From positions 1 to 31,780 of the IMG/VR virus record IMGVR_UViG_3300009441_000021: DNA of 31,780 bases; one strand, given 5' to 3'. Below the pieces are notes generated by a model. The model saw only the letters and a list, made by a program, of their open reading frames with translations, was not told the origin of the DNA and searched no databases. The translations under genes and the position numbers were made by a program. Below, piece by piece: positions 3,609-31,780 of the stretch. Every line of letters starts with the position of its first letter. Position 1 is the stretch's first letter. Source of the DNA: a virus (lineage: Duplodnaviria; Caudoviricetes).

Positions 3609-3839
3609 ATGGGATTTAACAAATTAATGCTTCCAGATGTAGATAGATTGGATGAACAATTACAAATTGTAGGTAAAATAGAATTCGGGAAACATTGGCT
3701 GAGGCGATTTCAAAAGTCAGATGCTATTATGGGATCTAACGAATCACATGACTTTATTAAACCTTTTGCAGATTTCGCATATAAAGAAAGCAAACTAATA
3801 TTTGTAAAAGATGAATTGGATACAGATATTAAAAAATAA
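3609..3839 (+). CDS. Hypothetical protein (76 aa)
   Basis: Abuts the upstream stop (TAA-ATG); same strand and packing as neighbours. Confidence 0.75.
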   Translation: MGFNKLMLPDVDRLDEQLQIVGKIEFGKHWLRRFQKSDAIMGSNESHDFIKPFADFAYKESKLIFVKDELDTDIKK

Positions 3840-6198: not shown

Positions 6199-8058
6199 AT
6201 GTCAGGAATTACGGACGATGCAAATTTTATTTTTAAAAAAGTACTTGATGTGGTTGATGCCACTACTGGTTTAGAAACTAAAGAATACATTTATGACGAT
6301 GTAGTAAACGGTGGTGAAGTAACTACTAGAGTACTTAAAAACGGTGCGTTAGATGCTGGAACTCCAAAACCAGTAGATGAAAAGGGTTCTGGTAAAACAA
6401 CAATGACTGATGCTAATTTTTCAGAAGCAGCAACTAATAATAGTTCAATGTATCCTGAAAAGGGTTCAAATTCTAAAGCATATAACGTACAGTCAACAAT
6501 AAGTGGCGGTCCTGGTAAAGTTACATATGAAGATAAAGGTGAAACAGTTACCTTTGGAAAGGCACCTAGAAGTTTATTTAATAATTGGACCTTGCTTAGA
6601 TATGCCAATAGAGTTGGCGTTGTCGCAGGTGATGATAGTACGCCATATGATGGCTCGACATATAACAAAGCTGTAACTAATTCGCTTGGAATTAATCGTA
6701 GAAACAATCCAACTGCTAGAAATATTGTAGAGTATTCACAAGAAGTTGGAGGAGCATCATTCTCTTATAGTTATAGCGATTTTATTCAAATGGAACATTA
6801 TGGTCAAATATCTAATGATTATTTGATTACTCTTAGGAGATTTGCATATCCAGTAGGTGATGACTTATTATCTCCTAAGATTGCAGGTACCACAGGAGAG
6901 AAAGTAGACGCATCCGCTCCTGATTTAGCGAGAGCTGTGACATGGCTGTCACCCTCGTTAGGAAATGATTTAAAAGAAATACTTAAATTTAAAACAGGAT
7001 ACGAATGGAAAGAAGCTAAATCAAAAATACAAGAAGCACAATCTAAAAGTGCAGATAGAGGTAAACTTGGAGAGATGATAGATGCAGGTGCAGGTGGACA
7101 AGGTGGAGCAATAGAATCCGGTTTAAATGGATACTCATCAGTACAAGCGAAACAACTTAGACTGAACGGTAATGTAGATCATACTAAAGAAACTTATCCT
7201 AATAAAGTGTTTGGACCTCTTAATATCATTGATAAAGTATTGGCAAGAGAAAAAGGTTTAAAATTTGAACAAGAATTTAAACTTTCATTTCACTATGATT
7301 TGAAAGCATATCCAGGAACTAGTCCTAAAGTTGCATTCATGGATACACTCGCAAATATATTAGCATTAACATATAGTAACGCGCCATTCTGGGGAGGAGC
7401 AACTAGATTCTCTGGATCAGGAGCCACTGGTAAACCATTTGGTGACACAGCTAAATTAGCATCTGGTGATTATGCTGGTTATTTAGGTTCTATTGCAGAT
7501 ACACTCGCAGGTATGGGTGGAAACTTCATGGATCAATTAAAGAAGACAGCTTCTAATGTTGCTAACGGAGAGGGTATTAACAAAATACTGGGTGATTCTT
7601 CAATTCTTGAAAACATCGTTGGTGGTGGACTTATGAAATTAATGGGTGGACCCAGTGGTGGCGAGATCATTAAAGCATTTTTAACTGGTGACCCAACTGG
7701 TCAATGGCATTTGACTATTGGTAATCCAATGAACCCAATAATTGTATGTGGTAATTTAGCATTACAAGAATCCGACTTTAGTTTTGAAGGACCTTTAGGT
7801 TTTGAAGGATTTCCTACTAAAATGAAAGTTGAGATGACCCTAAAACCTGGTAGACCTAGAGATAAAACAGAAATTGAATCTATGTTTAATGCAGGTAGAG
7901 GTAGAATGTATCTACAGCCCGAATGGGCAAATGATGGTGGAGATGGTATTGATGTAGATGCTATGTTTAATGTAGATGCATATGGAGCTAAATCTGCAAA
8001 AGGAAATCTTAAAAATAAACCATATATCAGTAGATTATCTGATATGTCGGCTGGATAA
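6199..8058 (+). CDS. Baseplate tail-tube initiator/cap-like protein (T4 gp48/gp54-like tube fold)
   Basis: FEQEFKLSFHYDL and C-terminal GNLALQESDFSFEGPLGFEGFPTKMKVEMTLKP resemble the terminal strands of tube-fold proteins; directly upstream of a gp53-like gene. Confidence 0.55.
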   Translation: MSGITDDANFIFKKVLDVVDATTGLETKEYIYDDVVNGGEVTTRVLKNGALDAGTPKPVDEKGSGKTTMTDANFSEAATNNSSMYPEKGSNSKAYNVQSTISGGPGKVTYEDKGETVTFGKAPRSLFNNWTLLRYANRVGVVAGDDSTPYDGSTYNKAVTNSLGINRRNNPTARNIVEYSQEVGGASFSYSYSDFIQMEHYGQISNDYLITLRRFAYPVGDDLLSPKIAGTTGEKVDASAPDLARAVTWLSPSLGNDLKEILKFKTGYEWKEAKSKIQEAQSKSADRGKLGEMIDAGAGGQGGAIESGLNGYSSVQAKQLRLNGNVDHTKETYPNKVFGPLNIIDKVLAREKGLKFEQEFKLSFHYDLKAYPGTSPKVAFMDTLANILALTYSNAPFWGGATRFSGSGATGKPFGDTAKLASGDYAGYLGSIADTLAGMGGNFMDQLKKTASNVANGEGINKILGDSSILENIVGGGLMKLMGGPSGGEIIKAFLTGDPTGQWHLTIGNPMNPIIVCGNLALQESDFSFEGPLGFEGFPTKMKVEMTLKPGRPRDKTEIESMFNAGRGRMYLQPEWANDGGDGIDVDAMFNVDAYGAKSAKGNLKNKPYISRLSDMSAG

Positions 8059-8072
8059 AATAATATATTATA

Positions 8073-8957
8073 ATGGAGTTTAAATTATTTGCTAATAAAA
8101 AATTAAGTGAAGATAAAGATAAATTATTTTTAGCTCAGCCAACTATGTTGTTTGGAAGTTTAAATCCAAGCGATTATTTTATGATAGCTAAACATGTTGT
8201 GAAGATAGATGATCTTGTTAGGCCAGATAGAATATCGTTTGAACATTATGGTACAACAGCAGGTTTAGATATTATTCTAAAATTCAATGGTATTTCAGAT
8301 CCATTTTCTATTAATATAGACGATACGTTATGGATTCCTATGGATACAATTCCCTATTTTAAGTTAGAATCTCCATCAATGTTTGAAGATAATCCTATTA
8401 AGAATCAATTTATAAAAACTAAAAGATTAAGTAAAACTGATCAACGTAGATTAAAAGCACTTAAGAAAAAGTATAACAAGGAAAACTTATTACCACCTAA
8501 CGTCATACCTGTTGGTAGAAAAAATTATGAATTTGATGGAACTGACGTAAGATTGGGAATGCAAGCACAAACAGATCCTGTGGTTGCGTCAATTTTAAGT
8601 GACATGTTTCCAATTGATGACTTTAACGATTCTAAAAACGATAGAAAAGATGGAGCAGGTAATCTAACAATAGACACAACAGATAATTCACAACTAGAGA
8701 ATGACAACAACGGGAGTGGAAGCGGAGTAGGAATTAATTACGAAGATCAACTAGATAAGAACAACGGAAACCCTAGAACTGGAAGCGGGGCTGGTGGCGG
8801 AACTGGTAGTGGAACTGGTGGCGGAACTGGTTCAAACGCAGATGGTTCAAAAACTGACACTGCAGATGAAACTGGAGGAAATAAAGGAGATGGAACGTCG
8901 CAAGGAACCAGTGATAATAATCCTACTAATAATCCAGATGCACCTTGCTCTAAATAA
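8073..8957 (+). CDS. Baseplate wedge protein, T4 gp53-like (LysM-like) with Gly/Asn/Asp-rich tail
   Basis: HVVKIDDLVRPDRISFEHYG...IILKFNGISDPFSINIDDTLWIP matches the gp53/LysM signature (RPD.IS..YG....IL..N.I.DP). Confidence 0.8.
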   Translation: MEFKLFANKKLSEDKDKLFLAQPTMLFGSLNPSDYFMIAKHVVKIDDLVRPDRISFEHYGTTAGLDIILKFNGISDPFSINIDDTLWIPMDTIPYFKLESPSMFEDNPIKNQFIKTKRLSKTDQRRLKALKKKYNKENLLPPNVIPVGRKNYEFDGTDVRLGMQAQTDPVVASILSDMFPIDDFNDSKNDRKDGAGNLTIDTTDNSQLENDNNGSGSGVGINYEDQLDKNNGNPRTGSGAGGGTGSGTGGGTGSNADGSKTDTADETGGNKGDGTSQGTSDNNPTNNPDAPCSK

Positions 8958-11077: not shown

Positions 11078-12532
11078 ATGTCAGACTTTAAACATATTAA
11101 CGAGTTTAGAAAAGGTTCAATTTTAAGTAAGATCAGTGAAGATCCAACTTATTTGAGTTTCTTTATGATGTTTGATGCAATAGACAGAGAACATTCACCA
11201 TTATTATCAGGACCAGCGGAGGAATATCTTAGACAATTTGTTGATCCTCCTGGATCAACGTCTGACAAACCTGGAAAACATGTTGCAAACTTACGAGCTT
11301 TCAAAAAAGTGTTACTTAAGATCAATAAAGAACTTCCATGGTTTTGGCAGAAACTAAATGGCTTAGAAGCTACACAAGAATATAAAGACATGTCTGAGCC
11401 ATTTAATGGGGCAGAAAAACCAAAAATAGAAATTGAATGCCTAGAAGAGAATGTTGAATTAACAGCATTAGGTTTAATGCAGCTTTACAGAACTGCGGTA
11501 TATGATTATAACAGATTCGTAGAGGTTTTACCAAAAAATTTAAGACACTTTAGAGTTTGGATCGTTATGTCAGAGGTTAGAACATTTCAACAAAGTATTG
11601 GCGCTAGAGATTTTGGTTTATATGGTAATTCAACAACGGCTGCGTCTGTGACAACGCCTTCAGGTTTAAGTCAAATCAAATCAGCTTTGGGTAAAGGTAG
11701 TGAAACACAGATTAAGTCGGTACCTGGTGGATTTGACGAGCCATTAGTAAAAAATTATTCGGCTGAGGCGAAACCGCATGTTATGATAGAATTAGGTCAT
11801 TGTGAATGGGAAACTGATTCTATAAAAGAAATGTTTTCTGATTTAAATAAACAACCTGAACTTAGAAAACCTAAATTGAGCTTTTATTGGAACACATCTA
11901 GTATTACCAGTAATAAATTTGGACCTAACATCTCGAGTCCAGAAGCCTCACCACTAATGCCTACTTCAAAGAAAGATGATGAGTTATATCCCAATACTCC
12001 ATTTAATCCACTTGCGAATATTCAAAACGCAATTAGTGATAAAGTTAATGGAATAGCAGATGGTCTAGTAAATAGATTTAATAATCTAAAGAACAGTTTA
12101 CCGGGCCAGGGCAATAATCCAATGGGTAGAGTATATCCAGAAGGTTTAACTGGGGCTGCGGCTACATTGGCCGAAGCTGGAATGGATAAAGTTAAAGCTT
12201 TATTTATGGATAATGTTCATGGAGCTTCTGGAGCATTAGGAAGTTTAGGAGATATTAATTCTGCTTTAGAAGCTGGTAGTATCAATGGTATTATGAATTT
12301 AGCTGGTCAATTATTTAAACCTAAGCCAAATAAACCGGCTAATGGTAATATGTCTCCACATGGAATATATGATCCAGCAATTGACAGTTCACCTGATGGT
12401 TTTATTAATGAAAAGGTATATGATCCTATTGCACAACAATCAAATAGTCAAACAATATCACCTGGTAGAATTCATGAACCGGGAGTAGATAGTAGTCCAG
12501 ATAATAGTATTAATGATAATGTACACGAGTAA
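11078..12532 (+). CDS. Putative tail-tube-like baseplate protein (gp54/gp19-like N-terminal half)
   Basis: PWFWQKLNGL...KIEIECLEE...LMQLYRTAVYD resembles the tube-fold core; located between hub and spike; low-complexity repeated C-terminus. Confidence 0.45.
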   Translation: MSDFKHINEFRKGSILSKISEDPTYLSFFMMFDAIDREHSPLLSGPAEEYLRQFVDPPGSTSDKPGKHVANLRAFKKVLLKINKELPWFWQKLNGLEATQEYKDMSEPFNGAEKPKIEIECLEENVELTALGLMQLYRTAVYDYNRFVEVLPKNLRHFRVWIVMSEVRTFQQSIGARDFGLYGNSTTAASVTTPSGLSQIKSALGKGSETQIKSVPGGFDEPLVKNYSAEAKPHVMIELGHCEWETDSIKEMFSDLNKQPELRKPKLSFYWNTSSITSNKFGPNISSPEASPLMPTSKKDDELYPNTPFNPLANIQNAISDKVNGIADGLVNRFNNLKNSLPGQGNNPMGRVYPEGLTGAAATLAEAGMDKVKALFMDNVHGASGALGSLGDINSALEAGSINGIMNLAGQLFKPKPNKPANGNMSPHGIYDPAIDSSPDGFINEKVYDPIAQQSNSQTISPGRIHEPGVDSSPDNSINDNVHE

Positions 12533-13245
12533 TGGCAGATGAACTTTTTCAAGATAATTTAAGAGATTCACATTGGTTAGGAGAAGTCGTAGTAAACGAA
12601 GATCCTTTACTTAATGGTAGATGTCGTGTTAAAGTTTATGGTAAATTTGATAAACTTGAGAACGATTCAATTCCGTGGGCAACTCCCATGAATAGAGATG
12701 CAGTGGGTTCTCATCATGTACCAAGAGTTGGTGACATAGTTGCGGTTAGATTTGATAATGGTAACATATATCATCCAGAATATTGGTTTCAAATAGATCA
12801 AAATGACGATTTAAAAACAGATATATTGGAGGCATCTGATGCACCACAAGATGTTATAAGTTTAGTATATGATGCTGAACGAAATGTAAGAATATATCAT
12901 TCTCCCGAGGATGGTTTGGTTATCACTCGTGGTAGTGGAGCTAAGGAGAGACCAATGATACAAATAGACGAAGAAGGATTCATTAAGATAAGCACAGATG
13001 CGAAAATGTTCTTAGACTGTGGTGATATATTCGTTTCAAATGAAGGTGAACCAGGAGCAGATGAGACAGAACCAGCAGTTAGAGGTCAATCTCTACAAGA
13101 TTGGTTACAAATGTGGTTAGACGATTATAATGCACATATTCATCCAACGGGAGTTGGACCATCAGGACCACCGATGCCGCCTACACCTGTAACTGTAGGT
13201 AAACTATCAAGTACACATATTAACTATCAACAAAAAGGTAAATAA
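12532..13245 (+). CDS. Baseplate central spike (T4 gp5 OB-fold / P2 gpV-like) with HxH apex
   Basis: WLGEVVVNEDPLLNGRCRVKVYG...IPWA...VPRVGDIVAVRFDNG OB-fold signature; short beta-repeat region; C-terminal NAHIHPTGVGPSGPP. Confidence 0.9.
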   Translation: MADELFQDNLRDSHWLGEVVVNEDPLLNGRCRVKVYGKFDKLENDSIPWATPMNRDAVGSHHVPRVGDIVAVRFDNGNIYHPEYWFQIDQNDDLKTDILEASDAPQDVISLVYDAERNVRIYHSPEDGLVITRGSGAKERPMIQIDEEGFIKISTDAKMFLDCGDIFVSNEGEPGADETEPAVRGQSLQDWLQMWLDDYNAHIHPTGVGPSGPPMPPTPVTVGKLSSTHINYQQKGK

Positions 13246-13247
13246 TT

Positions 13248-14948
13248 ATGCCAGCAATGTGGCCAACATTTATACCAAATCTAGCCGGCGATATCGCAGG
13301 GCAATCTTTCACTAAACCTGGAGGTGCAATGGTATCTTATGAATTACCTAAAGTTGGAGTTGATCAAGTGCCTATTTTTCCACCATCTACCGATTTAATA
13401 AAATCAATAAAACCAGGTAATCCACTTAACGCTGCATTAACTACTGATCCTACTTCGATGATAAATGCAATTAATCTTGCGCCATTAAGTGGAAGATATG
13501 ATTTTGGTGTAAGAGTCGCTGAAAGATATCTCGAAGCTGTGAAGGGTTTGGCAATGACACCATTTGGTGCAACACATACAAATAATCCAGCGGCTGAATT
13601 TTTGTTGAAGCAGGGATACGGATTAGTTTTTGAAAGACTACTAAAAGAAGGTGATATTCCTTTACAAGATCAAAAGGATGAAGATGGAAACATAATAGAA
13701 ATGGGTAAAGAATCTCACCCTGATTATGCTGATTTTTGCCCAGATCCAGTTGAAACACCAGATCCCGTTGAAGAACAAAAGAAACTAGATAAGAAATTTA
13801 ATAAATTCGTAGATGACTATAAGAGTGATTCCTTGATGGATTTAAAAAAGTTTAGATTTTTTGAATTTCCATGTTTGAGTGGTAATGAGACGCAATCCGA
13901 ATTAGAGAATCTGTTTGCTGCTAGATTGATAGAACAATATAAGACATCTAATGACAAAGCTGAATTTAAATTATGGGCAGAATGTTTGGGCTCTAAAAAA
14001 TATAAAGATAGTACTTTATTAATAAGTGATAAACCATATCCTAATATTAGTACATCGACCAGAGCTGACATATCGTCTGCCGGTTATAACTGGCAATCTT
14101 TAGCGGATAATGTGAGTGATTTATTTATAGCGGGTATAGAAGGTAATGGTCCTACATTAGATTGTCCATTGAATGAATGGAAAATTCAAGTAGCGTATGA
14201 TTTTGACCATAATCCTCCTGAAAATCCAAGCAAAAGACCTAAGATATTAACGTCCAATGTGGTAGCTACTTTTAGTTGGTATCCTGGTTTGAGGCAAGGT
14301 TCTTTTGCTTATATTAATGGATCTGCAGTTACTGCACCTAAGTGGATAAAAACTCCAAATTGGATTGAAAATGTATATGAAGAAAACGAATGGGAAAATC
14401 ATTGGCGTAAAATTCCAAATGCAATGAGCAATGCTAGAACTCCCGAAGATGTGATTGACATAAACCCAACAGCTGGCGGAACTATATTTAAATTTCAAAG
14501 ACAACAAGTAATAGACGCTAAGACTGCTGCGGAAGAATGCGATGATGTAGAAGAAGATAGCAACATAGACTATACTTGGCCAGGCGGTGATCCATATGAA
14601 GAAATGGCAGAAGTAACGATTGCATATTGGTATGCTTGTATTGTGAAACCGTTTGCACCTACACCATCAGCTTTGCCAGCATTAATACCAGCGCCATTGA
14701 CTGGAATTTATATACCAATATACTATGGTGGTAAAAAAAGATTAGCTAAAAATCTTAGAAAGGCTTGGAACACTGGAAAAACATTTAGTGTTATTCCTGC
14801 TCCACAACCACCTGCATTTGCAGTTGCAACAGCAGTTGCTGCAGCTTACGCATTACATTTACTAGAATTTAAACTATTATACTTAGGAGGTATTCCCACA
14901 CCGGTCGGCCCAGTTCCTATGGTTGGTTTTGTACCTGTTGTGTTCTAA
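13248..14948 (+). CDS. Hypothetical, probably virion/spike-associated protein
   Basis: 2 nt after the spike gene; Pro-rich hydrophobic N- and C-terminal segments (…LGGIPTPVGPVPMVG) flanking a hydrophilic middle. Confidence 0.6.
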   Translation: MPAMWPTFIPNLAGDIAGQSFTKPGGAMVSYELPKVGVDQVPIFPPSTDLIKSIKPGNPLNAALTTDPTSMINAINLAPLSGRYDFGVRVAERYLEAVKGLAMTPFGATHTNNPAAEFLLKQGYGLVFERLLKEGDIPLQDQKDEDGNIIEMGKESHPDYADFCPDPVETPDPVEEQKKLDKKFNKFVDDYKSDSLMDLKKFRFFEFPCLSGNETQSELENLFAARLIEQYKTSNDKAEFKLWAECLGSKKYKDSTLLISDKPYPNISTSTRADISSAGYNWQSLADNVSDLFIAGIEGNGPTLDCPLNEWKIQVAYDFDHNPPENPSKRPKILTSNVVATFSWYPGLRQGSFAYINGSAVTAPKWIKTPNWIENVYEENEWENHWRKIPNAMSNARTPEDVIDINPTAGGTIFKFQRQQVIDAKTAAEECDDVEEDSNIDYTWPGGDPYEEMAEVTIAYWYACIVKPFAPTPSALPALIPAPLTGIYIPIYYGGKKRLAKNLRKAWNTGKTFSVIPAPQPPAFAVATAVAAAYALHLLEFKLLYLGGIPTPVGPVPMVGFVPVVF

Positions 14949-14958
14949 AAAATAATAG

Positions 14959-14966
14959 GATATATA
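14959..14966 (+). promoter_or_regulatory. Putative late-promoter box GATATATA upstream of the S1 gene
   Basis: Exact 8-mer in the 45-nt gap, beginning 35 nt before ATG 14994. Confidence 0.65.
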
Positions 14967-14993
14967 ATATGTTACACCTTTAATATAAAATAA

Positions 14994-16286
14994 ATGAACA
15001 ACGAAAAAAACAAAAGAATTAGAATTGGCGAAACCAAAACTAATCAAACACCAGTTGAAGAACTAGACACTATTGTTGAAAACTTAAAAAAAGAGGAAGA
15101 TTCTGGACCTGAAGGTGCAGAATTCTTTGATGAAGCCGGAGAATTTGATTGGGATGCATTTGAAGCTACTTGCCCATCAAGAACGCGAAAACACAATCCA
15201 CATATAAAGACACAGAATGGAGATAAAGTATTTTCTAGGGAAGTATATGCTCAAGAAATGTATGACATTCTTTCAGCACATGACGAATCATTAGGAAATG
15301 TTATAACTATTCTAAACCCAGGAGAAATCCATGAGGGTAAAATATACGCAGTTAGTTCTGAGTTTATTAGTGTAGATATAGGTTACAGAGAATTAATATA
15401 TGTAAAATATGATAAAGAACCTGTAGAAGTTCAGTCATTAAAACCAGGAGACGAGACTGCAGTATTAATTACTCAGCTAAGTAAAAACTCTCATGTACTA
15501 GGAAGTATTAATGGAGGTGTTAAACACAAAGTGTTTATGGATCTTAGAGAAGCTGTCGAATCAGGAGGAACTGCATGGATTGGTACAGTTACACATATGA
15601 TTGAAAACGGAGGTTACATGGTATTAGTACAAGGAATTGAGTGCTTTATGCCAGGATCACTTGCAGGAATTAATAAATTGCATGATTTTGGTTCTATTAT
15701 TGGAACAGAAATGTATGTGGTTCCGGTGAGTTTCTCACCAGACCGAGGTACATTGGTTGTTTCACACAGAAAATACTTACAAGCATTGATACCTAGTGAA
15801 TTAGAGTCATTAAAAGAAACACAAGGTGAAACTCTCACTGGAAATGTGACAGGTACTGCTAAATATGGTGTATTTGTAGAATTTAACAAGTGTTTAACTG
15901 GAATGATACATAATAATGATTTAGACGAAGACACATTAGTTAAATTTAAAGCTAGGGATATTAAACCAGGTGATGAAATTTCATTTATGGTTAAAGATAT
16001 TATTAGTAATACTAAAATTACACTAACACAAAAGGCCAATATAACTGTTAATCCTTGGTTAGACATTCAATCAAGATATCAGATTCCTTCTGTAATACAA
16101 GCAACTGTAAAGACTAAGAAAGATTACGGTTTGTTTATTACAATAGAAGAGGGTGTCACTGGGCTGCTACATGTCAGTGAATTAAGTGAAGAAGTAATGA
16201 GTGTATTTAAATCAGGAGATCCTATTACAGTACAGATTACTAGGATCGATGTTGACTCTATGAAAGTCTTCTTGAAAATGCCTTAA
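14994..16286 (+). CDS. rpsA: Phage-encoded ribosomal protein bS1 homolog (four S1/OB domains, D1-D4)
   Basis: Colinear with bacterial S1: D1 PGEIHEGKIYAVSSEFISVDIG; D2 GGYMVLVQGIECFMPGSL...LVVSHR; D3 GETLTGNVTGTAKYGVFVEF...GMIHNNDL; D4 NPWLDIQSRY...DYGLFITIEEGVTGLLHVSEL. N-terminal EFDWDAFE. Confidence 0.92.
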   Translation: MNNEKNKRIRIGETKTNQTPVEELDTIVENLKKEEDSGPEGAEFFDEAGEFDWDAFEATCPSRTRKHNPHIKTQNGDKVFSREVYAQEMYDILSAHDESLGNVITILNPGEIHEGKIYAVSSEFISVDIGYRELIYVKYDKEPVEVQSLKPGDETAVLITQLSKNSHVLGSINGGVKHKVFMDLREAVESGGTAWIGTVTHMIENGGYMVLVQGIECFMPGSLAGINKLHDFGSIIGTEMYVVPVSFSPDRGTLVVSHRKYLQALIPSELESLKETQGETLTGNVTGTAKYGVFVEFNKCLTGMIHNNDLDEDTLVKFKARDIKPGDEISFMVKDIISNTKITLTQKANITVNPWLDIQSRYQIPSVIQATVKTKKDYGLFITIEEGVTGLLHVSELSEEVMSVFKSGDPITVQITRIDVDSMKVFLKMP

Positions 16287-16307
16287 TAACTATTGCAACG
16301 AGAGCGT

Positions 16308-16315
16308 GATATATA
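16308..16315 (+). promoter_or_regulatory. Putative late-promoter box GATATATA in the 5' arm of a hairpin (16306-16333)
   Basis: Exact 8-mer beginning 35 nt before ATG 16343; GTGATAT pairs with ATATCAT (16327-16333). Confidence 0.6.
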
Positions 16316-16342
16316 TTGAAACGGTAATATCATAATCTTAAT

Positions 16343-17653
16343 ATGCAAAAATTAACTATAGATTCTCCGAGAGAATCAATATTGAATGCGGCACTCATGG
16401 GTGTTGAGTTTGAATTCTATTCTGATCTCGATCTAGAAGTAACCAGAAAATCTCTGGCAAAACTTCTAGATCGAAAGATTAGATTAGAAGATAAAGCACA
16501 TAGTGATTTTGAACCTTCAGCTGAAGAGTTTAAAATAGAACCAGATATGTCTGGTGGTAAAGGACTAGTAGAACTAGTGACTGGGCCAATCCCTTATAGA
16601 AACGCCAGAATAATGGTTATCAAAGTGCTTGATTGGATATCTAAGAATGGATATACTAATGATAGAGCATCAATACACATCAACCTATCATTTGATAAAA
16701 AATATCTAGAAGACCGAGACACTGTCTTGAAAATGAATGTTCTTAAATTCATTCTAGAGTTTGATGAACAACAAGTTTATAAGTTATTTCCTGAAAGAGA
16801 AAAATCTGCGTATGCAAAAAGTGTTAAATGGGTGATGCCAAAATGGGAATCATTTCATTTTGATGCCAATCAAGTAGCTTCTACTAATTTTAAATTTGCC
16901 GATACTAAATATTACGGAATAAACTTTTCTAAGAAGGAGAAGAATTATTTAGAGTTTAGATATATTGGTGGAGTTGATTATGAAAAGAAAGTTGATGATA
17001 TACTATATCTAACTGAGAGTTTTTTAATGCAAATGTGGAAATTATGTAATGATGCTAGATTTAGTAATGAAAATAAAATTGAACTTCAAAGAATTTTAAA
17101 TAGGAATAAACCTGTTTCTGATATGCTGAAAGATTACTCAGCAGTTACAAAGAATTGGCCAAATATACAAATACTGACCGATTTACAAGACAATCCCACA
17201 ATCATAAAGGTGCACTGGGAGAGGTTTAAATTGAGAGTAATGGATTTATTAGTAAATGGATCAATGACTGATGGTATTATTAATTATGACTCCGACTATG
17301 GTGCTGTTCAGATCAAGGATGGTAAATTTCCAACTGTATACTTTTTAGAGAATTTTGAATTTATTGATTGCGAAATAGCAGGAAATGTAGATAATTCAAG
17401 TTTTTATAATTGTGATATATCTGGATCAGCTATTAAGTGGGGTAGTTTATACCAAGGTACTAAAGTAAAAGAATCCAAGGTAGAATCTAGTTACACACAT
17501 GGTAGCTGTGAGTTAACTAATTGTTATGTTGCGGGTCGTGATACCATGTTTAAAGGTAAAATGATAGGCGGTATATTCAGAGAAGGTTTTATGACAAACA
17601 GTGCTAGATTTGAAGACACTGAAATAGTAGTAAGTAAAAAAATAAAAGAATAA
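16343..17653 (+). CDS. Putative amidoligase (COOH-NH2 ligase, Amidoligase_2-like) with C-terminal beta-helix-like repeats
   Basis: Motifs in family order: GVEFEF, PDMS, ELVTGP, SIHIN, KYYGINF, LEFR. Last ~110 aa show ~5-residue periodicity (IDCEI..VDNSSFYNCDISGSAI..VKESKVESSY..LTNCYV). Confidence 0.8.
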   Translation: MQKLTIDSPRESILNAALMGVEFEFYSDLDLEVTRKSLAKLLDRKIRLEDKAHSDFEPSAEEFKIEPDMSGGKGLVELVTGPIPYRNARIMVIKVLDWISKNGYTNDRASIHINLSFDKKYLEDRDTVLKMNVLKFILEFDEQQVYKLFPEREKSAYAKSVKWVMPKWESFHFDANQVASTNFKFADTKYYGINFSKKEKNYLEFRYIGGVDYEKKVDDILYLTESFLMQMWKLCNDARFSNENKIELQRILNRNKPVSDMLKDYSAVTKNWPNIQILTDLQDNPTIIKVHWERFKLRVMDLLVNGSMTDGIINYDSDYGAVQIKDGKFPTVYFLENFEFIDCEIAGNVDNSSFYNCDISGSAIKWGSLYQGTKVKESKVESSYTHGSCELTNCYVAGRDTMFKGKMIGGIFREGFMTNSARFEDTEIVVSKKIKE

Positions 17654-17654
17654 A

Positions 17655-18497
17655 ATGAGTGAAATTAGAAGCGGTTCGAATAATGATCTTACAACTGGAA
17701 GGTATTTTGATCCTAATTGTTTAAATGCATTTTTAGAAGAATTAGGTGATGACATTACCGGAGCATGTATGGTACCTATTAATTTACCACAAAAAGAAAT
17801 TATTAATATAATCAAAAGAGCTAAAAAATGGTTCTATAAGAAGTATGAGTATTCTGTAAAAGAAAACTATTACCATATACCACATTCTATATTTAGTACT
17901 GATTATTTTAAAAGTCGTAGAACACTTAATCTACCTGGCCCTAGTTTAGATGGTGGAGGTGGAGTATATTCAGTATATGGATTGTATGACCTTCAGTCAG
18001 GATGGAATGGCGGTGGAGGTGGAATGGATGTAAGATTCGATTCTGGTTCTGATTTTTCTATGGACAGAATGTTGTTTAGAGGAATGTATGAAGGTGGAGG
18101 AATGTCTGAAGCTGCGGAAGAATTACAATATTATGTATTGAATGCTTCTATGCAAGATTTAACTAGGCAAATATTAAACAATCCTATTTCTTATAGTTAC
18201 TCTAATTTAACTGGAGAATTAAAGTTCATGGGTGATACACCAAAAGGTGATGTTATATTAGAGTTATATGAAACTATACCTGATTGCGCGCTATATTCCG
18301 ATGAAATATTCTTCAGATATGTTAGTGCTAAAGTAAAACAATCTATTGGTTCTAAATTAGCGATCTTCAAGTTTGCGTTACCAGGTAATGTAGATTTTGA
18401 TTATGATGCTATTAAATCAATGGGTGACGATGAATTATCTGCAATTGATGAAGAGATCAAGGGCGATGAAGGCGTTGACTGGATGATGCATTCGTAA
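17655..18497 (+). CDS. Neck/head-completion protein, T4 gp13-like
   Basis: IIKRAKKWF near the N-terminus; C-terminal RYVSAKVKQSIGSKLAIFKFALPGNVDFDYDAIKSMGDDELSAIDEEI matches the gp13 pattern Y..A..K..G..L.KF...LPGGV.......A..E...LEEE. Confidence 0.8.
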   Translation: MSEIRSGSNNDLTTGRYFDPNCLNAFLEELGDDITGACMVPINLPQKEIINIIKRAKKWFYKKYEYSVKENYYHIPHSIFSTDYFKSRRTLNLPGPSLDGGGGVYSVYGLYDLQSGWNGGGGGMDVRFDSGSDFSMDRMLFRGMYEGGGMSEAAEELQYYVLNASMQDLTRQILNNPISYSYSNLTGELKFMGDTPKGDVILELYETIPDCALYSDEIFFRYVSAKVKQSIGSKLAIFKFALPGNVDFDYDAIKSMGDDELSAIDEEIKGDEGVDWMMHS

Positions 18498-18893: not shown

Positions 18894-20723
18894 ATGGCAG
18901 AATTAAAATTTTTAAGTACAATTAGAACCGGAGCAAATGCCATAAAGGCAGATGCTAGGACGTATATTTCTAGGGTTTACAACAGGGCAGAAACCCTGTT
19001 TACCGTTGCATCGCCGTTCGCTCAGATAGTAAGTGTCTTATCAGAAATGATGGATCTTATTATGTTCTATATAGAGGATTCTGTTGTAGAACAAAACATA
19101 TACACTGCTCAACAGCCCGAGTCAATATATGGTATGTCTAGATTAACTGGTCATGATGCTACAAGAGGTTTTGCATCAACTGGTGAAATTACATTTAGAT
19201 GGAAGCCCGGTGCAGATATGGTAAAGATTGCTGGAAATACATTAAATATAGAAGGTAGATCAAAACTTAAATTCGAAGCAAATGGTTTAACTTATACATT
19301 ATTAAATTCAGTAGATAGATATAAATTACAAAAAACAAATTACAGTTCATTTAAAACTGCTATCATTCAGGGTGAATTTGAATCACAAACTGTAACGTCT
19401 AATGGTAACAAATTACAATCATTTAATATAAATACCGGTGGAATAACTGATCACAGTAAAGTCAGTGTCAGCATTAACGGTGAAAAATGGATGAAGCATG
19501 AATCTCTATATGATTTGTTATCTAATGAAAAGGCATATTTAATTAAAACCGGAATTAGCGGAGGATTAGATCTTTATTTTGGAAATGGTTCTTTTGGTAT
19601 GATTCCGCCGTTAGGCGCTAGTATTGAAGTAGAATATGTAAAACACGTTGGTCTTGCCGGTAATTTAGATGATTCACCAGATTTAGCAATCAAATGGGAT
19701 GGATCTGGTACAGATTCAAACGGAACAGAACATGATTTGAATGAATTTTTAGATGTGACTATTACTTCTTCACCTAAAATGGGTAGTGATAGAGAAAATA
19801 CAAAATTCACTAAAATAATGACACCATTGGCTAGTAAATCATTCGTACTAGCAACACCAGATAATTATGAATACTTCTTATCAAGATACAACATGTTTTC
19901 GTACATAGATGCATATAACACAACGGATGATCAATACCTGGATGACGATAATGTTATTTATATTTTCGCAGTACCTGATATTAAAAAGAAATTATCTAAA
20001 AATCAAGATTATTTTAGCATGCCTCAGGAAGAAATGTTCTTTGATCAAAGTGAATATGATGCGATGCAAAAAGTACTTGAAGATAGCGGACAACAAATGG
20101 TAACTACAGAAGTTGTATTTGTTAAACCAAAGGTAAGGTATTATAGCATTGACATCAATATTAGGTATTTCGAAGGTTATACTAGGGATGAAATTTATAC
20201 AAGTGTTAGAACTAAACTTTCAGATTATTTACTAAACATCACTCGAAGAGATAAATTGCCTAAATCCGATATCATTTATATATTGGAGGATGTTGCTGGA
20301 ATCGATGCGGTAAATGTTAAGTTTATTTCAGAGACAGAGGAGACAGCTTTAAAGAATGGATATTTTGAATCTATTAACGTTAGTGTTATTCCACAAGAAC
20401 CAGTAACGTTGGAGACTGTTGGTAATGGAAAACAAAAATATGTTTTCTTTAAGAAAATAGAAGATATAAAAGTGGTTCCTGTTGATAAGTCAATTGATAT
20501 ACCATATAGTGTAAAAGGTCTAGACCAGTGGGGAGATATTATTATGGATAAAGAAGAGGTTGCAGTATTCAGAGGTGGATGGCAAGATAGAGATGGAGAT
20601 GTAATAGAGGATGATGTATTAATAAATGCTGAAGCAGCAATTAGTATAAATTTTGAATCAAATCCTGTTCCTAGAACAATCTACACTAGAGTACAGGCTG
20701 GAAATAGAAAGGCACTTAAATAA
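18894..20723 (+). CDS. Baseplate wedge protein, T4 gp6 / baseplate-J-like
   Basis: EQNIYTAQQPESIYGMSRLTGH; LYFGNGSFGMIPPLGASIEVEY...G..GN; GSDRE; LATPDNYE; VAGIDAVNV. Confidence 0.88.
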   Translation: MAELKFLSTIRTGANAIKADARTYISRVYNRAETLFTVASPFAQIVSVLSEMMDLIMFYIEDSVVEQNIYTAQQPESIYGMSRLTGHDATRGFASTGEITFRWKPGADMVKIAGNTLNIEGRSKLKFEANGLTYTLLNSVDRYKLQKTNYSSFKTAIIQGEFESQTVTSNGNKLQSFNINTGGITDHSKVSVSINGEKWMKHESLYDLLSNEKAYLIKTGISGGLDLYFGNGSFGMIPPLGASIEVEYVKHVGLAGNLDDSPDLAIKWDGSGTDSNGTEHDLNEFLDVTITSSPKMGSDRENTKFTKIMTPLASKSFVLATPDNYEYFLSRYNMFSYIDAYNTTDDQYLDDDNVIYIFAVPDIKKKLSKNQDYFSMPQEEMFFDQSEYDAMQKVLEDSGQQMVTTEVVFVKPKVRYYSIDINIRYFEGYTRDEIYTSVRTKLSDYLLNITRRDKLPKSDIIYILEDVAGIDAVNVKFISETEETALKNGYFESINVSVIPQEPVTLETVGNGKQKYVFFKKIEDIKVVPVDKSIDIPYSVKGLDQWGDIIMDKEEVAVFRGGWQDRDGDVIEDDVLINAEAAISINFESNPVPRTIYTRVQAGNRKALK

Positions 20724-30089: not shown

Positions 30090-30142
30090 TTAAATCTGGA
30101 TATATAATACAGACAGATGAACTGTGTTATAAAAAGATTTAA
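30090..30142 (+). promoter_or_regulatory. Two-tier stem-loop containing a GATATATA box (30099-30106)
   Basis: TTAAATCT (30090-97) pairs with AGATTTAA (30135-42); TATAATACAG (30103-12) pairs with CTGTGTTATA (30122-31, one G-U); ends 4 nt before ATG 30147. Confidence 0.65.
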
Positions 30143-30146
30143 ATAA

Positions 30147-31780
30147 ATGAGTGCAATTCAAAGTATACTAATTATAGATACAGGTCAAACAGACGCTGTA
30201 TCTGCTTGTTCCTTTTCGGGAGCAGGCTCAACGGGAGTACAATTTAATAGCAACTCACTTAAACCGGCTAATCTAGATATTCTTTACACTGATTACGGAA
30301 ACCTAATAGTATTTAATGGTGGTGATCAATTCTTTAAGGAAACTGGCGCTAACGGTACAGAAACTTTTAAAGTGGGCGTCGACGGTGCAGTTTCTGAAGT
30401 AGCATCATGTGCGATTCCAGATATTACTGCTCCTGTTATTACTGTAACTGGAAACAATCCTGTTACTGTTGAATTAGGAACGACTTATACAGACGCTGGA
30501 GCCACTGCTGATGGTGGAGAAACAGTTACGGCAGCAGTTACACCAACCGGAACTGTTGATACCTCAATAGTTAGAGAGTATACAATTACATATACGGCAA
30601 CAGATGCTGTAGGAAATATAGGAACAGCCACCAGAACGGTTAATGTTGTTGATACAACGTTACCTTTACTTACTGTAAATGGAGATAATCCAGCTACGGT
30701 TGAAATGGGAGGTACTTATACAGATATTGGTGCAACTTCAGATGGTGGTGAAACCGTTACTTCTACTGGAACTGTTGATACCTCAACCGGTGGAGCGTAT
30801 ACCATTACTTACTCAGCTACTGATGCTGCAGGGAATATAGGAACAGCAACAAGAATAGTGAATGTTGTTGATAATACTGCACCTATAATTACTATAACTG
30901 GAGATAATCCTGCTACTGTTGAATTAGGAACAACATATGATGACGCTGGAGCTACCGCTGATGGTGGAGAAACAGTTACTTCTACGGGAACAGTAACTAC
31001 TTCTATTGTAGGAACATATACGATTACATATACGGCAACAGATGCCAATAACAATACAGGAACTGCTACTAGAACAGTGAATGTGGTTGATACTACTGGA
31101 CCTATAATTACCATTAATGGTAATAATGCACCTACAATAGAGGCTGGTACCAGTTATACAGACGCTGGAGCTACCGCTGATGGTGGAGAAACAGTTACTT
31201 CTACAGGAACGGTTGATACTACTACCGTAGGAACTTACGATATTACATATACGGCAACAGATGCCAATAACAATACAGGAACTGCTACTAGAACTGTTAC
31301 AGTTGTAGATACAAGTCCACCAATTATAACACTAAACGGTGACGCAACATTAAATATAAATGTGAATAGTACATATGCCGATCCAGGCTATACTGCTATA
31401 GATATTCACGATGGGGATATTACTTCAAATGTTCTTGTCACAGGAACAGTAAATACTGCTACTGTAGGAACATATACGATTAAATATAACGTCAGTGACG
31501 CTGTTCCACTCCCTGCAGTTGAAGTGACTAGAACTGTAAATGTAAATGATTCTTCCGCGCCAATTCCTGTAGATGCTGCATATGATGTAGTATGGAATCA
31601 AACATTGGCAATAACTTTAGTGGCTAATGACAATGTAGACACTCCTATAGCTTTAACGTATACTATAATAACTCAGCCAACTAGAGGTAATCTTATTTTT
31701 GTGGATAACAATGCTGTTATTTATGAACACACAGAGAGTACTATTGGATCAGATTTTTTCACGTTTAAAGCAACGGATAC
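30147..31780 (+). CDS. 3'-truncated Ig-repeat adhesin-like protein (five DUF5011/HYR-like domains then a Big_9/cadherin-like domain); not in ORF track
   Basis: Translated by hand from ATG 30147: MSAIQSILIIDTGQ...DITAPVITVTGNNPVTVELGTTYTDAGATADGGE...YTITYTATDAVGNIGTATRTVNVVD (x5)...LTYTIITQPTRGNL...DFFTFKATD; no stop before the window end. Confidence 0.9.
   Translation, partial: MSAIQSILIIDTGQTDAVSACSFSGAGSTGVQFNSNSLKPANLDILYTDYGNLIVFNGGDQFFKETGANGTETFKVGVDGAVSEVASCAIPDITAPVITVTGNNPVTVELGTTYTDAGATADGGETVTAAVTPTGTVDTSIVREYTITYTATDAVGNIGTATRTVNVVDTTLPLLTVNGDNPATVEMGGTYTDIGATSDGGETVTSTGTVDTSTGGAYTITYSATDAAGNIGTATRIVNVVDNTAPIITITGDNPATVELGTTYDDAGATADGGETVTSTGTVTTSIVGTYTITYTATDANNNTGTATRTVNVVDTTGPIITINGNNAPTIEAGTSYTDAGATADGGETVTSTGTVDTTTVGTYDITYTATDANNNTGTATRTVTVVDTSPPIITLNGDATLNINVNSTYADPGYTAIDIHDGDITSNVLVTGTVNTATVGTYTIKYNVSDAVPLPAVEVTRTVNVNDSSAPIPVDAAYDVVWNQTLAITLVANDNVDTPIALTYTIITQPTRGNLIFVDNNAVIYEHTESTIGSDFFTFKATD
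30420..31547 (+). repeat. Five tandem Ig-like domain repeats (231, 219, 219, 219, 240 nt)
   Basis: Units begin at in-frame GAT (Asp) codons at 30420, 30651, 30870, 31089 and 31308; units 3 and 4 share long identical nucleotide runs. Confidence 0.92.

Follow-up and report, generated by a model that had tools for sequence, protein, structure and literature searches.

The window analysed here is a 31,780-base virus record (IMG/VR IMGVR_UViG_3300009441_000021, positions 1–31,780; Caudoviricetes) from an uncultured marine jumbo phage. Nearly all long open reading frames (ORFs) in its ORF listing lie on one strand, and two genes in its tail/neck block concern us here. The first encodes a paralogue of ribosomal protein bS1 (hereafter S1; 14994–16286, plus strand, 430 aa) with four OB domains, an N-terminal extension, and a Bacteroidia-type F-x-W anchor (F51, W53), as judged by profile and alignment. 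The second encodes an Amidoligase_2-family protein (hereafter the ligase; 16343–17653, plus strand, 436 aa), for which profile and structure model indicate a glutamine synthetase (GS)/GCS fold plus a β-helix. Each gene carries an exact copy of GATATATA starting 35 nt ahead of its ATG (14959 and 16308), just as the first-pass annotation of this DNA had reported. That annotation went on to propose, as speculation, that both genes form one cassette for late translation takeover and protein modification. We arrive at a different arrangement: S1 and the ligase probably just lie next to each other and do not form a single machine. What is new here is that the ligase promoter appears to lie inside a conserved predicted hairpin, which would hide the ligase start on RNA reading through from S1.

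The window holds no more copies of GATATATA than chance would give (5 versus 3.66 ± 2.05 expected; 32 of 100 shuffles reach 5), but the placement and the conservation of the motif do exceed chance: four of the five copies sit 29–48 nt before a gene start (6170, 14959, 16308, and 30099). Among relatives, the exact motif is present in 34/34 distinct S1 leaders and 44/45 distinct ligase leaders, and in 0/43 neck gene leaders. Across five related contigs of 126–176 kb, 143 copies lie on the main coding strand versus 2 on the opposite strand, and the 23 downstream proteins scanned include portal, head protease, major head, head closure, sheath, tube, and tail fibre. A signal specific to the S1–ligase pair is ruled out by this genome-wide bias and by the portal, capsid, and sheath genes behind the motif. 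GATATATA is likely, from its distribution, a genome-wide late promoter of the lineage, akin to TATAAATA of T4, with “late” being read from the gene classes downstream. The late-type promoters assigned to both genes at first pass are thus supported by strand bias and downstream structural genes; the shared motif itself is no evidence for joint action of S1 and the ligase.

In six genes, which belong to two closer relatives, the ATG follows the first base of GATATATA at a distance of exactly 12 nt, and no gene lies closer; we therefore place the transcript start at motif start + 12. For the S1 promoter (14959–14966, plus strand), this predicts a start at 14971, and for the ligase promoter (16308–16315, plus strand) a start at 16320, in the hairpin loop. 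Two metatranscriptome contigs agree with the 14971 start: one has this base as its first position, and the other, which derives from a different strain, opens with the same leader letters. Both come from one study, and as contigs cannot show RNA ends, they are a weak hint. In a distant branch (L268–L297, L161, and L163), the ligase ATG mostly lies 12–14 nt after a AATATATA or TATATATA motif, so that the ligase mRNA is probably leaderless there. Since the 16308 copy is the sole exact intergenic GATATATA before the neck and wedge genes of the window phage, the next following only at 30099, the ligase promoter likely serves the whole ligase–neck–wedge run that it heads. A second promoter-like motif (AAAC-TTT, 11–16 nt, TATAA) stands at 390–420, before a dCMP deaminase gene, and at 3759–3790, before a 217-aa ORF; it is strand-biased in two relatives and probably marks an early or middle promoter. 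No early-type promoter was found ahead of S1 in the window, early-type motifs being confined to 390 and 3759.

The ligase promoter lies in the 5′ arm of a predicted RNA hairpin (16300–16339, plus strand; 16 pairs, −10.3 kcal/mol), which begins 13 nt past the S1 stop and ends 3 nt short of the ligase ATG. Taken alone, the window hairpin is modest (folding z −1.9). Across relatives, ligase leaders fold with a mean z of −2.72, and 31 of 41 distinct leaders fall below −2, compared with −0.78 to +0.34 for the leaders of nine other genes; the predicted late leader, counted from the loop start, is unstructured (mean −0.5). The promoter pairs with the start region in 73/77 S1-adjacent leaders versus 1/34 others, a count that predates the overlap-branch loci described below and includes L393 only from that branch. 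In an alignment of 63 leaders, 80.9% of cells pair, versus 30–50% for slid partners, and both-side changes occur in 7 of 18 hairpin pairs, the structure having been derived from the same sequences that entered this covariation check. The 3′ arm ends 0–6 nt before the ligase ATG in all 63 leaders, and the stem mostly begins 6–13 nt after the S1 stop. A DNA operator at this place is disfavoured by the G-U pairs in the stem and by the variable spacer of 20–27 nt. Likewise, a canonical terminator is disfavoured because the hairpin has no U-tract and the terminator scan is blank there, the terminators after the head genes of one relative being canonical.

Such a stem is carried by 6 of 44 promoter–gene pairs on three contigs, namely three ligases, the long gene at 30147 with its positional equivalent, and a head closure gene; promoter-in-hairpin is thus a recurring device, as in T4. 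The second example within the window (30090–30142; 18 pairs, −14.1 kcal/mol) precedes the long ORF beginning at 30147 (544+ aa), which continues beyond the window, and the equivalent place in relative G002 shows the same arrangement. In T4, a late promoter inside a start-hiding hairpin is described for genes e, soc, 49, and I-TevI (PMC3014915, PMC2988022). As described for these genes, the window has a late-type promoter in the 5′ arm, a predicted start in the loop, and a 3′ arm over the initiation region. In contrast to T4, the promoter is GATATATA rather than TATAAATA, the host does not use Shine–Dalgarno (SD) sequences, the upstream gene carries the same promoter class, and the hairpin is a prediction. 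We consider it probable that the hairpin is an RNA element separating S1 and ligase control.

Linkage was counted for 147 distinct ligases flanked on either side by 3 kb or more of sequence, grouped into 39 clusters, the loci coming from searches seeded in a few clades rather than from a random sample. A tail/neck gene lies within 6 kb of 145/147 ligases (38/39 clusters), while S1 lies upstream of 108/147 (18/39 clusters, with one further cluster split 1:1). Four arrangements are seen. In the window clade, S1 is followed by the hairpin with its promoter and by the ligase; in a second group, the S1 stop overlaps the ligase start without the motif (49/67 loci); at five loci, a ligase with its own motif occupies the site without S1; and in relatives of 480–735 kb, S1 and the ligase are 49 kb to > 200 kb apart. 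The last state is found in four distinct GenBank huge phages and in two 97–98% complete contigs. The first-pass annotation had named unlinked genes in relatives as one of the outcomes that would speak against a cassette, and this is what the 480–735 kb branch displays. Further, the L153 lineage keeps S1 beside a ligase with a degenerate site, and the phage Lak-B2, with an S1 homologue, lacks the ligase. Co-occurrence of S1 stands for every ligase-bearing near-complete genome checked; adjacency to the ligase holds for the tail/neck genes far more widely than for S1. With these unlinked, S1-less, and degenerate cases in hand, we are fairly confident that the pair is not a cassette. S1 was not detected in five fragments of 23–46% completeness, which does not show absence. 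The tail/neck linkage of the ligase survives inversions and rearrangements, and it is kept in phages of an estimated 280 kb to 735 kb.

Gene 1 is a bS1 paralogue and not an rpsA equivalog. Its residues 97–398 align to E. coli S1 10–310 (E 3e-38) and residues 108–427 to TIGR00717 17–340, making the protein collinear with domains 1–4 of cellular bS1, that is, with the ribosome anchor D1–D2 and the RNA-binding D3–D4. It has four domains versus six in full-length bS1, D5–D6 being missing from its 430 residues; identity to cellular bS1 is 25–34%, and the NCBIfam rpsA score of 145 bits stays far under the cut-off of 577. The collinear alignment and the conserved F51/W53 (present in 58/58 and 57/58 S1 homologues, respectively) bear out the initial bS1 assignment as that of a real paralogue. 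The F-x-W motif also occurs in a Flavobacteriaceae bS1. In F. johnsoniae bS1, an aromatic N-terminal helix contacts uS8, and F51/W53 of phage S1 match this anchor helix (PMC13000457). Phage S1 thus shares with Bacteroidia bS1 the aromatic N-terminal anchor and the first four OB domains, and differs in the truncation, identity, and profile score given above. SD cores precede only 4/136 and 4/123 ORFs in two relatives, with starts called mechanically. The AU-rich S1 leader (14971–14993, plus strand) is unstructured (folding z −0.6), non-coding, and unusually conserved: at 66% S1 protein identity its similarity is 0.85, the highest of 11 leaders compared. This near-invariance makes it a candidate S1 autoregulation site or strong initiation signal.

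The S1 gene itself is of an already known kind. Possible rpS1 genes in huge phages were reported in 2020 by Al-Shayeb et al, where true rpS1 could not be confirmed (PMC7162821). Common to both cases are an S1-domain protein, a huge phage, and genes without SD sequences; particular to the present case are the D1–D4 collinearity, the Bacteroidia anchor motif, and the late-type promoter, the function here being read from sequence. Late expression of phage bS21 was reported in 2022, in an article whose main text contains neither bS1 nor an amidoligase (PMC9723584). S1 homologues were found in large uncultured GenBank phage records and in Lak phages.

Gene 2 matches PF12224 Amidoligase_2 narrowly (22.1 bits versus a cut-off of 22), over residues 19–122 only, and 5 of 28 family members match this profile. 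Its structure model (predicted local distance difference test 87.3) comprises a catalytic GS/GCS-fold domain (approximately residues 9–251; 16367–17095, plus strand; model and alignment) and a C-terminal right-handed, pentapeptide-like β-helix (approximately residues 268–436; 17144–17650, plus strand; model). The model of the former superposes on E. coli GS with Z 10.8 and a root mean square deviation (rmsd) of 3.3 over 185 aligned residues (Foldseek E 2.7e-4). PafA (Z 8.0, rmsd 4.0) and Dop (Z 8.3, rmsd 4.3) also match the model, and PafA ranks no better than GS, GshA, YbdK, and many small-molecule ligases; the best solved matches are GS-type small-molecule ligases, and among viral folds, phage “amidoligase enzyme” proteins come closest. 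The PafA Pfam family was matched neither by the window ORFs nor by the 28 family members, and sequence searches of the PDB with the ligase and its alignment gave no hits. The β-helix resembles antigen 43 (Z 9.1, rmsd 3.1), left-handed helices matching only at rmsd ~11, and 15 of 28 family members match Pentapeptide_4. A QnrC match of the ligase (16.9 bits versus a cut-off of 500) reflects the repeat fold only, and the near-neutral mean net charge of the β-helix (−0.5 to −3.9) disfavours an acidic DNA mimic.

E22, E24, D68, E77, H112, N114, N194, E204, and R206, which we take to be the catalytic positions of the GS fold, are all present in the window ligase. They presumably correspond to the metal/ATP-binding motif of COOH–NH2 ligases (ExE, E, HxH/N, ExR). 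The site is intact in 53/54 close and 32/32 distant homologues, and in a further branch H112–N114 is replaced by Q-x-S in 39/48. The first-pass view of gene 2 as a GS/GCS-fold ligase with an intact site is accordingly supported for the window phage at the level of its model. A wider survey started from the best 150 representatives, of which the 128 with at least 380 aa were kept; together with the window protein, this gave 129 aligned rows. All 8 core residues are kept in 71 rows, 19 rows differ at 1–2 positions, and 39 differ at 4–8 positions with both domains kept, the last count depending on alignments of remote sequences and including one row cut at the N end. The genomic context of degenerate-site copies is known for L152/L153 only (7329–8630), where the orthologous ligase carries D68N, E77R, H112Q, and R206K relative to the window, and S1, promoter, and hairpin are kept. 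For one degenerate-site representative and one distant member, locus searches came back empty.

Clustered at 50% identity, the family has 233 representatives with E ≤ 1e-30; its clusters in the atlas are 99–100% viral. Among eight matches in cellular genome bins, six adjoin phage tail or S1 genes. The parts are of known kinds, while no function of this ligase family is described in the literature searched; that search returned no paper on the family or on the S1–ligase pair, although the supplements of PMC7162821 may list such genes, and the one supplement of the Atu_ph07 report that was searched names no amidoligase (PMC6102473). Amidoligase families, among them the phiEco32/LUZ24-type phage enzymes, were reportedly set out by Iyer and colleagues in 2009. 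With these and PF12224 the ligase shares the GS/GCS fold and the conserved acidic, His/Asn, and Arg positions. Unlike the phiEco32/LUZ24 type, it has a fused C-terminal β-helix, a tail/neck setting, no glutamine amidotransferase (GATase)/ATP-grasp cassette, and, in ~30% of divergent members, a degenerate site. PafA is the precedent for ligation onto protein lysines. The model of the ligase shares its fold with PafA and Dop of pupylation and differs from them in its setting: no Pup-like partner or proteasome context was seen beside it, and no search was aimed at a small partner. GATase, ATP-grasp, and second ligase genes are absent from the 24 window ORFs. GATase occurs in two of five near-complete relatives, ~17 kb from the ligase, and in none of the other three. 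In these two complete relatives, a 470-aa ORF upstream of the ligase carries the GATase domain (G021:C1:295608-295940 and G022:C1:306290-306625).

The surroundings partly match the “run of tail genes” first described. Clear family-library matches are the gp5-like baseplate spike gene (12532–13245, plus strand), the gp13-like head–tail adaptor or neck gene (17655–18497, plus strand), which starts 1 nt past the ligase stop and has no promoter motif of its own, and the gp6-like baseplate wedge gene (18894–20723, plus strand), predicted to share an operon with the ligase. The gp25 neighbour scores under its Pfam cut-off, and library scans gave no family match for several others, among them the 566-aa gene directly before S1 (13248–14948, between spike and S1). 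This gene has a conserved proline-rich end and was not detected or is substituted in several relatives. The window start (450–2683) carries genes for a dCMP deaminase and a DinG/YoaA-type helicase. In the 462-kb phage L160, two related ORFs of ~400 aa with a common N terminus (1743–2921 and 7451–8656) are inserted in the tail block and are probably mobile genes. The best isolate matches of the neck protein are mostly Tenacibaculum and Chryseobacterium phages, and the contig of one relative was binned within a Flavobacteriaceae genome; judged by these sequences, the host is likely a member of the Bacteroidia.

The reading that we favour, by a modest degree of belief, is that of two separately controlled late genes, likely working separately, with the ligase likely serving tail/neck assembly. 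Late RNA polymerase would start 12 nt after the first motif base, yielding a short S1 mRNA and a separate ligase–neck–wedge mRNA. On S1 read-through RNA, the hairpin is predicted to hide the ligase start region, and it may also form the 3′ end of the S1 mRNA; RNA started in the loop would be unstructured and translated. Phage S1 likely docks on the 30S subunit of the host, probably one of the Bacteroidia, and would help to start translation of SD-less phage mRNAs. In the weakest steps of this scheme, the β-helix would bind a phage assembly protein, and the GS-fold domain, where its site is intact, might, with ATP, join a carboxylate of the bound protein in an amide or isopeptide bond. Binding would be the function that all members have in common, since the site is gone in ~30% of the divergent ones. 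Gene context and the survival of site-less forms tie the ligase to tail/neck assembly, and of the targets listed by the first-pass annotation, virion proteins fit this context best; a role in virion assembly itself we hold only tentatively, at a little under even chances.

Several observations weigh against this reading. S1 is present in all ligase-bearing near-complete genomes checked (6/6 GenBank, including two apparent duplicates, and 3/3 IMG/VR). The overlap of S1 stop and ligase start in 49/67 loci of one branch suggests coupled translation, and a midpoint-rooted tree, without root or support test, is compatible with ancestral S1–ligase adjacency. Late genes may cluster for regulatory reasons alone, and two ribonucleotide reductase subunits are among the proteins encoded behind GATATATA. 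Covariation in the hairpin is modest (0.101 versus 0.085 for a one-column slide), and RNAalifold on the first, wider alignment of 29 leaders returned no consensus structure, although per-sequence folding and the trimmed alignment do give the hairpin. Moreover, the hairpin marks one clade, so that its link to S1 adjacency amounts to one evolutionary event. In T4, it is early read-through that such hairpins block; in the window, by contrast, the S1 promoter is the nearest one upstream and belongs to the same class, and early-type motifs lie 12–16 kb upstream. The alignment dependence of the degenerate-site count counts here as well. Finally, no isolate phage carrying the ligase was found, and because the family is seen in uncultured records only, the virion-assembly step rests on gene context.

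The same observations bear on the alternatives. If S1 and ligase were one functional unit, the ligase would modify or partner phage S1, or the ribosome that carries it, with the hairpin as a coupling device opened by terminating ribosomes or by S1. The constant co-occurrence, the side-by-side position in two of the three main branches, one of them with overlapping stop and start, and the matches to PafA and Dop agree with this, as does the stem start 6–13 nt after the S1 stop, which, given the size of the ribosome footprint, is near the edge of a terminating ribosome. We nevertheless consider it unlikely, as the genes are unlinked in the 480–735 kb branch, the ligase is kept at sites without S1 (in fragments only 23–36% complete), L153 retains S1 beside a degenerate ligase, Lak-B2 has S1 alone of the two, the ligase has its own promoter, and PafA ranks no higher than many small-molecule ligases. 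Almost as improbable is an ordinary phage amidoligase that acts late on a small molecule, a cell-envelope polymer, or a DNA base, its harmful activity being limited by the hairpin and its tail position being purely regulatory. β-helices often bind polymers, and the ranking of solved and viral folds points this way. So do the GATase ~17 kb off in two of five relatives and the co-occurrence of amidoligases with DNA hypermodification genes in other phages (PMC8989533). However, GATase, ATP-grasp, or modification genes are not adjacent, repeated site loss with both domains kept would be unusual for a purely metabolic enzyme, the tail/neck link outlasts inversions and rearrangements, and the weakly charged β-helix is no clear DNA mimic.

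A further alternative, which we rate as possible though doubtful, concerns the hairpin. It could mainly be the 3′ end of an abundant S1 mRNA, as a weak terminator or nuclease barrier, with the hiding of the ligase start as a side effect. Four metatranscriptome contigs of one study stop within the hairpin: two, which cover S1 and come from two samples, at 16302, and the other two in the 3′ arm. For two of the four, the stop depends on a joint that has just 21 letters to one side. They are a weak hint, as contigs cannot show RNA ends, and low cover of the ligase gene was not used, since contigs cannot rank genes. Against this, three other contigs cross the hairpin, the stem lacks the features of the canonical terminators of a relative, and its 3′ arm keeps its position immediately before the ATG in all 63 leaders. 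The boldest possibility, a long shot in our view, is that the ligase–β-helix family is a core, lineage-wide phage protein ligase that, like a PafA of viruses, covalently tags or cross-links proteins of the tail and neck (or the S1-bearing ribosome) during assembly, has become a catalytically dead assembly factor in many lineages, and is tied in its synthesis to S1 by the hairpin as a switch.

The predicted promoter-in-hairpin offers a precisely placed control element that can be put to the test in an SD-less host, and with the +12 start the late promoter of the lineage has a usable definition. If the ligase modifies virion proteins, it would represent a new step in phage assembly.

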